Origin: Candidatus Liptonbacteria bacterium
Lineage (GTDB): Bacteria > Patescibacteriota > Minisyncoccia > UBA6257 > JACOXY01
NCBI GenBank assembly: GCA_016182095.1
Contig: JACOXY010000001.1
Span: 1-57,993 of the forward strand
DNA: 57,993 nucleotides
Reading direction: 5' to 3'
The notes beneath the pieces are model-generated. The model was not told where the DNA came from and did not search any database. It saw only the letters and a list, made by a program, of their open reading frames with translations. The position numbers were made by a program, and so were the translations under genes. The first letter of the stretch is position 1. Every line of letters begins with the position of its first letter. Positions 56,053 through 57,993 of this stretch are shown here, one piece after another.

Positions 56053-57048
56053 TTAAAAGTCATCTTGAATTTTTTGCCTAACAGCTTCCCTTAACTTATG
56101 CGCATTGCCATGAATTAAGAGACCGGCATAAGAAGCAATAGTCGCGTGTTTGGGTTTGCCAAAAAGACGCTGTTCCATTCTTTGTTTTGTTTTTGTCCGA
56201 AGCACGCGGTGTTCGGTAAAATGCACCCATCCCAAGAAATCAACTCCGGAAGAGACAGTTTTAAAGACAATTTTCTTTGGGTGAAGCGTGAGCCTAAGTC
56301 GTTCTTCCAAAAAATCAGCGATTTTGGGCAAATACTCCAAAAGTATATCTGGGTCTCGCGAGAGCATTACAAAATCATCGGCGTATCTGATATATCGTCT
56401 AATTTCCAAATCACGCTTAATAAACTGGTCAAGTTCGTTTAAATACAAATTTATAAAAAGTTGGCTTGTTAAGTTCCCCAATGGAATCCCCCTGCCTTTC
56501 ACGCCACCTGAAAAACTATTTATTACTTCCTGAATAACTGCCAAAAGCCGCTTATCCCCAATGTGCTTCTCTAATATTTTTATGAGGATCGCGTGATTCA
56601 CCGAAGTAAAACATTTTGCGATATCACATGTTAGCGCTAAAACAGTTTTCGTTCCATTAGCTCCTTCTTTCCCCACAAATGCCGCTAATCTTCTTAATGC
56701 TTTATGAGTGCCCTTCTTTTTTCTACAAGAATAAGAATCATAAATAAAATATCGTTCAAAATATGGATAGAGCGCCTCATAAATCGCGTGGTGCGCCACG
56801 CGATCGCGCACAGACGCTTTATGAATATCGCGCGGCTTTGGGTCAGAAATTTTAAAATGAGCGTACCCACCATGTTTATACTTGCCGCCTAAAATATCGC
56901 GTTCCAGACCGCGTAAATTGTCCACTAGCCGCGCGGCAAATTCCGCCACGTCGACTTTTCTACGTTTACCCTTACTAAACGTTATCCACGCGTGAAACAA
57001 ATTTTGAAAAGAAAAAGTGTCTTCAAAGTTTGGAATTCTATAATTCAT
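56053..57048 (-). CDS. DGR-type reverse transcriptase
   Basis: KPRDIH..SVRDRV.HHA, SYSCRKKKGTH, DIAKCF, GIPLGNLTSQ (LGxxxSQ typical of DGR RTs), YADD; 331 aa with no maturase/endonuclease tail. Confidence 0.95.
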   Translation of the reverse strand: MNYRIPNFEDTFSFQNLFHAWITFSKGKRRKVDVAEFAARLVDNLRGLERDILGGKYKHGGYAHFKISDPKPRDIHKASVRDRVAHHAIYEALYPYFERYFIYDSYSCRKKKGTHKALRRLAAFVGKEGANGTKTVLALTCDIAKCFTSVNHAILIKILEKHIGDKRLLAVIQEVINSFSGGVKGRGIPLGNLTSQLFINLYLNELDQFIKRDLEIRRYIRYADDFVMLSRDPDILLEYLPKIADFLEERLRLTLHPKKIVFKTVSSGVDFLGWVHFTEHRVLRTKTKQRMEQRLFGKPKHATIASYAGLLIHGNAHKLREAVRQKIQDDF

Positions 57049-57084
57049 ATTATATATGATACAATTTTTACAATAAGAATAACT

Positions 57085-57461
57085 ATGAACGCCCCCCCCC
57101 CCAACAGAAGCTTTCCGGCATCGCGCAAAAATTGCTTGCCACCTATAAGGCCTGGCACGAAATCACTCGCCACATTCCCAAAATGCGGCGCTATTCACTG
57201 GGCGTAAAAATTGATTCGCTTTTTAGTGATGTTATTGAGCTTATATCCATTGCACAATTTTCCGTTAAAGAAAAACGAATTCCCGTTATTGAACGTGCAA
57301 TAGCTAAAAATGATGTTTTGAAATTTATGCTCTATGTTCTGTGGGAACTTCAGGGTATTGAAGAGAAACATTTTTTGGCGATTGCTCCGCAACTTGAGGA
57401 GGTAGGCCGTATGCTCTACGGCTGGAAACAACGTATGGAAAAAGAAAACCGCCCTGCGTAA
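57085..57461 (+). CDS. avd: Avd-like accessory variability determinant (four-helix bundle); natural ATG at 57085 is out of frame because of a C11 tract, in-frame TTG at 57132
   Basis: RYSLGVKID, LKFML..L.EL..I, EVGRMLYGW; adjacent to RT and TR. Confidence 0.85.
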
Positions 57462-57485
57462 AAGCGCGGAGCGGAAACAAGATTA

Positions 57486-57630
57486 GTATCGAACAGAACA
57501 ACACGGCAATTGCCATTCCAACCGTTCGTGAGCCAATTCGCATTCCGATGCCATCTCGCATCCGTGGCATTCCACCCCACACACGGCACATTCCAGTTGC
57601 CATTAGCGCCGCGAAGAATTACACGAAAAA
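57486..57630 (-). ncRNA. DGR template repeat (TR); 5' boundary approximate
   Basis: Minus strand reads RVILRGANGNWNVPCVGWNATDARWHRNANWLTNGWNGNCRVVLFD with 9 AAY codons; 57489-57509 is identical to 57972-57992. Confidence 0.9.
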
Positions 57631-57860
57631 CCTTCCGTGCCACCGCCCGCAAGAAGCATCGTGTGCTAATCGCCGAGCTGTATAGTATTTGGTATATAAA
57701 ATACTCCGGTTTCTCGCGCAGACTTTTCTAGTTTTTTAGATTTTGAAGATGACTCTCACTATCACGAGCCACATTAGCAAGTGATATTCTGGATTCACCC
57801 ATCTCGACGCTGTGGCATAAAGATCTTAATCCGTATGCTGATATTCACAAGCGTAATTTT

Positions 57861-57869
57861 ATTATATCA
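57861..57869 (-). promoter_or_regulatory. Extended -10 promoter likely driving the TR RNA
   Basis: TGATATAAT on the minus strand about 230 nt upstream of TR. Confidence 0.5.
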
Positions 57870-57964
57870 TTTCTAAATTTAACGCAAGGGCAAAAATCAA
57901 AAAATCAATCTGGCATTGGCAATAATCCAAAACCCAAAAAACTACCTGTAGTGAGCTTGCCGAA

Positions 57965-57993
57965 CTATTTTTCGAACAGAACAACACGGCAAC
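57965..57993 (-). CDS. 3' end of the DGR target gene (variable repeat/IMH), truncated by the window edge
   Basis: Encodes xGT-C-R-V-V-L-F-E-K-TAG; 21-nt identity to TR, then TR A versus VR G at 57510/57993. Confidence 0.85.

Follow-up and report, generated by a model that had tools for sequence, protein, structure and literature searches.

The window analysed here, the whole 57,993-nucleotide contig JACOXY010000001.1 (assembly GCA_016182095.1) of a Candidatus Liptonbacteria bacterium, carries a diversity-generating retroelement (DGR) close to its high-coordinate end. The reverse transcriptase (RT), the template repeat (TR) and the tail of the target gene, which holds the last part of the variable repeat (VR), were located on the minus strand, while avd was found on the plus strand between TR and RT (Table 1). 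This confirmed the layout read in an initial annotation of the sequence, including its remark that a TR RNA running on past the repeat would be antisense to avd.

Table 1. Coordinates and strands of the retroelement features within the window.
Feature	Position	Strand	Remarks
RT	56053-57048	-	DGR reverse transcriptase, 331 aa; RVT_1, IPLGNLTSQ, YADD
RT-avd spacer	57049-57084	.	36 bp between the divergent RT and avd start codons
Extended -10 box	57057-57065	+	TGATACAAT; candidate avd promoter, 19 nt before ATG 57085
avd	57085-57461	+	ATG 57085 to stop TAA 57459-57461; body open reading frame 57132-57461
T-run	57439-57448	-	TTTTCTTTTT, adjoins the stem-loop; antisense to the avd codons for ...EKEN
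Stem-loop	57449-57474	-	GC-rich, CCGCTCCGCG CTTTTA CGCAGGGCGG; starts 15 nt after TR
TR	57489-57620	-	3' end set by VR identity; 5' end placed from relatives
Structured leader	57621-57854	-	about 230 nt, putative 5' part of the template RNA
Leader helix P3	57719-57708 with 57632-57621	-	long-range helix; 3' strand abuts the TR start
Leader invariant GGUG	57644-57641	-	
Leader helix P5	57678-57675 with 57648-57645	-	
Leader helix P4	57704-57701 with 57695-57692	-	
Leader bridging strand	57739-57720	-	directly 5' of P3
Leader helix P2	57797-57792 with 57755-57750	-	
Leader helix P2b	57786-57776 with 57770-57760	-	
Leader helix P1	57836-57829 with 57824-57817	-	
Extended -10 box	57861-57869	-	perfect TGATATAAT; candidate template-RNA promoter, probable start near 57854
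Target-gene 3' end	57965-57993	-	last 22 nt of VR (57972-57993) and stop TAG 57967-57965

The RT reading frame matched RVT_1 at E 1.3e-22, and its translation contained the DGR-type motif IPLGNLTSQ (RT motif 4, [I/L]GxxxSQ) together with YADD (YxDD), which places the enzyme in the DGR clade of reverse transcriptases. The string PLGNLTSQL was kept across an alignment of 35 RT sequences, and the motif retrieved 588 relatives. At E ≤ 1e-20 at least 7,997 RT homologues were found, and those with names were Patescibacteria; an exact match to the RT protein was provided by only one 4.5-kb Logan contig, which stopped short of VR. The avd product matched bAvd (PF22296, E 1.9e-8) and NCBIfam NF033474 (DivGenRetAVD, E 1.6e-11), both below the curated cut-offs, and was matched at E 6.8e-50 by a clade profile built from 76 neighbouring open reading frames (ORFs), so that an Avd gene lies beside the RT.

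The TR frame is rich in asparagine codons and reads ...GANGNWNVPCVGWNATDARWHRNANWLTNGWNGNCRVVLFD. Positions 57972-57992 are identical to TR positions 57489-57509 (21 nt, with 0 such matches expected by chance), and in the 22 nt of VR that fall inside the window the remaining position is the only difference, at a TR adenine. Translated in the TR frame, the VR copy reads CRVVLFEK*, and both the frame and the stop codon fit the targets of related elements. The end of TR was measured at 27 nt from the avd stop codon, close to the 25 nt or so of the initial annotation, whereas the TR start given there, 57640, was moved and is probably near 57620, by analogy with relatives. As the contig ends where the window does, the break in the assembly falls inside VR, and the rest of the presumed target gene lies beyond it; exact-pattern scans of genome contigs and metagenome contigs for the VR flank gave no match.

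A profile search with one genome per species yielded 80 loci, nearly all in Patescibacteria genomes from metagenomes, and 74 of them had enough upstream DNA for a survey of avd. In 73 of the 74 loci avd was located on the strand opposite to RT and directly against the RT start. The sole exception, L015, has an avd homologue on the same strand as RT, about 1.5 kb upstream of it. In 61 of 72 loci, a TR with mismatches almost only at adenines (RT-sense copy) ended at a distance of 0-50 nt from the 3' end of avd, and VR lay upstream of TR on the same strand in 60 of these 61; in one locus it was inverted and downstream of RT. The TR-VR mismatches of the 61 related loci fell nearly all at TR adenines, with examples of 19/19, 18/18 and 28/28. 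The partner repeat was positioned 373-824 nt upstream in relatives (median 465), compared with 483 nt in the window, and the distance from the VR end to the TR start was of near-constant length (median 340 nt in relatives).

This arrangement corresponds to architecture B3 of Wu et al. 2018 (NAR 46:11, PMC5758913), written 'TR-(avd)-RT' with parentheses for the reverse strand, which made up 90% of their Candidate Phyla Radiation (CPR) set, and to DGR clade 2 of Roux et al. 2021 (PMC8144416), which is restricted to Patescibacteria. The window agrees with them in how TR, avd and RT are ordered and oriented, in the Patescibacteria host, in what appears to be a single upstream target gene with VR at its 3' end and, as tested on the targets of relatives, in a target protein without recognisable domains. 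Pfam gave no domain in the seven target proteins of relatives that were examined, in agreement with the published remark that the targets of CPR DGRs cannot be annotated. The targets of relatives (L002-L081) fell mostly into two size groups, of about 180-260 aa and about 615-680 aa. In layout there is no difference from B3; the 36-bp gap between the RT and avd starts exceeds that of most relatives, in which the two starts touch or overlap. The window element is thus an ordinary Patescibacteria DGR of the already catalogued architecture B3. Since B3 has been described for the CPR and is shared by all but one of the surveyed loci, the layout is not non-canonical for its lineage, as it had been labelled at first; the initial annotation had itself said that its claim would lose ground if this orientation proved to be the common, described CPR arrangement, and this is what the survey revealed.

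The orientation of avd could also have arisen as an assembly artefact through a local inversion, a possibility that had been raised at the outset and that draws on the breaks of metagenome contigs nearby, at a run of C near the avd start and near VR. Four DNA runs were examined as Logan contigs. Those of runs X1 and X2, separately assembled from the same groundwater study, cover 56900-57924 with zero differences and upheld the orientation, and the same orientation recurs across the related loci in unrelated assemblies, which leaves an artefact with practically no credence.

Behind the 3' end of TR, the GC-rich stem-loop reported initially at 57449-57476 was present, although it ends at 57474. 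Its stem has nine pairs with one mismatch, closed by a 6-nt loop within which the avd stop codon lies, and a T-run follows on the TR strand. Alignment of the TR 3' flank with MAFFT and RNAalifold, the covariation analysis that the initial annotation had proposed, failed on the hairpin, whose stems were too divergent to be aligned, and a per-locus hairpin scan with controls was used in its place. On the TR strand, 58 of 62 loci proved to have a GC-rich hairpin with a T-run behind it, no more than 80 nt from where TR ends (median stem +12 to +33). The avd strand gave such a structure in 1 of 62 loci, and the controls gave it at rates of 13% (shuffles) and 8.6% (random windows). Stem sequences vary greatly from locus to locus, and in these 58 loci the hairpin and T-run would close the TR-sense unit about 50 nt or less behind TR. 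When the TR region was folded as a single sequence, the z-score was only -1.8.

Such a hairpin might instead serve avd, as its terminator, as an mRNA-stabilising hairpin or as a bidirectional terminator shared by the two units, with no function in the template RNA. Convergent genes often share a hairpin, and the avd stop codon of the window falls within the structure, as it does in 33 of 58 relatives. In 24 relatives, however, the stop codon lies 5' of the hairpin, so that the whole hairpin sits inside the avd reading frame, and its position tracks the TR end (standard deviation 5.9 nt) more tightly than the avd stop codon (standard deviation 9.6 nt). The T-run was essentially confined to the TR strand, as the scan showed, and the hairpin sits at the position of the Avd-binding stem-loop in the prototype element of Bordetella phage BPP-1. 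The hairpin was assigned to the template RNA because of its occurrence on the TR strand only and because its position follows the TR end; a hairpin that serves avd alone or as a shared terminator, with no function in the template RNA, appears quite improbable. The T-run is the likely 3' end of the template RNA, to judge from its sequence and placement, and the stem-loop would combine the position of the Avd-binding stem-loop with the form of an intrinsic terminator, a match by position and shape.

In the BPP-1 element, as described by Handa et al. (bioRxiv 10.1101/2023.10.23.563531), a 140-nt spacer downstream of TR is required, including its priming adenosine. The spacer begins directly after TR with the Avd-binding stem-loop (nucleotides 3-33), then pairs, in two neighbouring duplexes, with the TR 3' end and a segment 5' of TR, and ends in an RT-binding stem-loop. 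The same authors predicted post-TR stem-loops in 207 of 278 avd-carrying DGRs, CPR elements included. When the 150 nt past the T-run, antisense to avd, were examined with RNAalifold in a well-anchored alignment of 43 loci, 0 consensus pairs were obtained. A long structured downstream spacer of the BPP-1 type, with primer strand, stop duplex, thumb ring and RT-binding stem-loop, was not found here.

Conserved structure was instead located on the other side of TR. The extended -10 box that lies upstream of it recurs at the equivalent alignment position in 49 of 59 relatives, with six or more of the 8 specified bases matching, and is mostly placed 220-250 nt ahead of the TR start. For the stretch from the box to TR, the consensus structure contained 43 pairs, of which 39 showed compensatory double changes. 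Alignment cells at these positions were paired in 93.6% of cases, compared with 67% in shuffles and 40-55% when the partners were slid by 1-3 columns; the covariation score was 0.82, compared with 0.29 and 0.13-0.24, respectively, and 0 of 500 shuffles reached 0.82. Ten of the 12 pairs of the long-range helix P3 carried compensatory changes among relatives. The window can form the leader helices, including all 12 pairs of P3 (8 inside alignment A3 and 4 read by hand). An Rfam scan of 56900-57993 returned only a chance-level match to VrrA (E 0.72), and no family covered the leader RNA.

The bridging segment of the leader is complementary to the TR 3' end and its flank (57475-57488 in the window). 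Duplex predictions against shuffled flanks were noisy (median z -0.87) and were replaced by a comparison of cognate with non-cognate pairs. Cognate leader-flank duplexes had a mean of -7.1 kcal/mol and non-cognate ones of -4.2, a strength attained in 0 of 10,000 permutations, and the cognate flank ranked within the top 10% for 30 of 43 leaders. No description of a structured leader that assumes the clamping role of the spacer was found in the literature searched.

At the junction of RT and avd, the 36-bp spacer with TGATACAAT on the plus strand (57057-57065) and TATCAT on the minus strand (57061-57056, 7 nt from the RT ATG) was read as it had been given in the initial annotation, which took both as -10-like boxes. 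On the avd side this reading gained support: the pattern TGnTAnnnT was found within 70 nt upstream of the junction repeat described below in 44 of 66 relatives, compared with 9.5% of shuffles. The pattern overlaps the RT coding sequence in most relatives, whereas in the window it falls in the non-coding spacer. For TATCAT as an RT promoter box, conservation gave no support, and it amounts to an AT-rich hexamer; no convincing conserved promoter was identified upstream of the RT ATG among relatives. A generic promoter scan called nothing in the RT-avd spacer, and there was no excess over shuffles in the region.

The initial annotation had concluded that the priming or spacer RNA must come from the strand antisense to avd. 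In that case a long, Bordetella-like spacer would follow TR on a co-transcript reaching from TR to RT, and convergent transcription or antisense pairing with the avd mRNA would regulate the element. The initial annotation also raised promoter competition as a possible means of regulation. The geometry permits this, the prototype depends on its downstream spacer, intrinsic terminators can leak, and no clear conserved RT promoter offers itself as a separate start. However, the hairpin and T-run that follow TR in nearly all scanned loci have the form of a terminator, no conserved pair was detected in the next 150 nt, and it is the leader that holds the covarying pairs and a strand able to pair with both ends of TR. 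Because the T-run appears to end the TR unit, no fold follows beyond it and the covarying structure lies upstream of TR, a long priming spacer antisense to avd is not supported by these comparisons; we regard it as unlikely.

We considered, with a probability of roughly 75%, that the whole is best explained as a B3 DGR with a stand-alone template RNA of leader, TR and hairpin, and with avd and RT expressed separately. In this model the template would be an RNA of its own, about 415 nt long, running from about 57854 to about 57439 and transcribed from the TGATATAAT box at 57869-57861. It would consist of the leader of about 230 nt, then TR, and would end at the stem-loop and T-run (57474-57439). 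Ending at the T-run, the RNA would overlap only about the last 23 nt of avd, that is, some seven codons and the stop. One strand of the leader region would pair with the sequence immediately 5' of TR (P3) as well as with the 3' end of TR and its flank, thereby clamping the template; the Bordetella phage element, by analogy, uses its downstream spacer for this. Priming would then be positioned, and cDNA synthesis stopped, by elements in front of TR, the post-TR stem-loop would be the Avd-binding stem-loop, doubling as terminator, and avd and RT would be transcribed divergently and separately from the template RNA.

Comparison with BPP-1 revealed both shared and divergent features. Both elements have an RT, an Avd, a TR/VR pair and a template rich in adenines. 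Both also have a stem-loop immediately behind the 3' end of TR, at the position of the Avd-binding stem-loop (here by position and shape only, as found in most relatives), and one RNA strand that forms, or here is predicted to form, two neighbouring duplexes, one with the TR 3' end and the other with a segment 5' of TR. They differ in that avd is inverted in the window and placed between TR and RT, in that the bridging strand lies about 100 nt upstream of TR in the structured leader and not in a 140-nt downstream spacer, and in that the stem-loop is followed by a T-run without conserved structure further downstream.

Several points weigh against this model. The promoter, the RNA ends and the efficiency of termination were all derived from sequence. 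The leader-flank duplex of the window itself was weak (-4.9 kcal/mol, rank 6 of 43) and no better than shuffles. If the enzyme shares the need of BPP-1 for a 140-nt downstream spacer, read-through past the T-run would be required, and since no convincing RT promoter was found, some RT expression may come from read-through from the template RNA. Adenine mutagenesis between TR and VR is apparent from the relatives only, because the VR of the window is almost entirely missing. The leader alignment made with MAFFT and RNAalifold consists of related sequences, which inflates shuffle-based significance; for this reason the slid-partner control is the fairer one, and the leader structure passes it clearly.

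Extended to the clade, the template RNA may be a rearranged form of the Bordetella phage DGR RNA, self-contained from promoter to terminator in about 415 nt. A leader strand would pair with both ends of the template and, by analogy, supply the priming nucleotide and the stop duplex, while only the Avd-binding stem-loop would remain behind TR, doubling as terminator inside the convergent end of avd. This wider proposal is more tentative, and we would rate its chances as slightly short of even.

The start of avd presented a separate feature. The ATG at 57085, which borders the 36-bp spacer, is followed by AAC G and then by a run of eleven C at 57092-57102, and this run shifts it out of the reading frame of the avd body; only with twelve or nine C would the two be continuous. 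The frame of the body stays open from 57078 onwards, and the first start codon within it is TTG 57132. When read with C12, the product begins MNAPPPQQKLSGIAQKLL... and the match to the bAvd profile grows from positions 14-106 to 4-106. In the closest relative, L082 (RT 77% identical), the run is G10 and is likewise one base short of the in-frame length.

Among the 74 loci with a divergent avd, the window included, a run of at least seven G/C was found at the avd-RT junction in 60 and (GA)n/(CT)n in 8, with at least 2 more (CT)n seen by eye, so that a repeat (7-13 C or (CT)n) occupies the junction in about 70 of the 74 loci. Across the 80 loci, 64 such G/C runs were counted in the junction windows, compared with 7 in the other 580 kb or so, an enrichment of about 370-fold. 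The upstream ATG was in frame in 17 of 66 scored loci, and GTG or TTG in 4 more, a share of about one third, as chance gives. Logan contigs break at the C-run in the two deepest runs, and in run X3 the contig spanning the tract has a k-mer depth of 22.8, compared with about 112 beside it. These breaks and the drop in depth fit length heterogeneity, but also homopolymer sequencing error.

Contingency loci with repeats of this kind include the poly-G/C tracts of Campylobacter, Neisseria and Haemophilus and the poly-C tracts of the Bordetella fim promoters. The resemblance lies in a homopolymer of 7-13 C, or (CT)n, within the first avd codons, whose length sets the reading frame. The difference is that here the case is read from sequence, the in-frame share is about one third, as by chance, and transcriptional slippage is an equally good reading. 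The C-run could act on avd either as a switch for phase variation or as a site of such slippage.

The flanking sequence gave further observations. Positions 57895-57993 had 2-5 times the contig depth of their neighbours, and all four runs contain a contig that joins 57895 to another left flank (TTATAATCATAACAAGGCCTTTGCGCAATG); from the excess depth and the alternative flank, this part contains sequence repeated elsewhere in the community, possibly a palindromic repeat near 57948-57967. Directly downstream of RT, three co-oriented genes occupy 51227-56026 on the minus strand. They encode an 822-aa protein that contains HEGAH and an extended coiled coil and matches vWA weakly (E 0.004), the product of a 168-aa ORF, and a 565-aa MoxR-like AAA_5 ATPase (E 5e-9). 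In L083 (RT 61% identical), a VWA protein likewise follows right after RT.

The layout of the element in itself matters little, being one more example of a catalogued CPR arrangement; the layout was already known, and it is the RNA wiring for which no description was found in the literature searched. What the survey brings into focus is the scaffold RNA that holds the template in place for self-primed reverse transcription, and how it is made in DGRs whose avd is inverted; the evidence favours a covarying leader upstream of TR over a downstream spacer. The leader helices, the bridging strand and the stem-loop provide defined RNA constructs for biochemistry with purified RT-Avd. Should the leader prove to stand in for the spacer, the RNA rules of the Bordetella phage element would not be transferable by position to the most numerous environmental clade of DGRs, with consequences for finding and engineering these elements.

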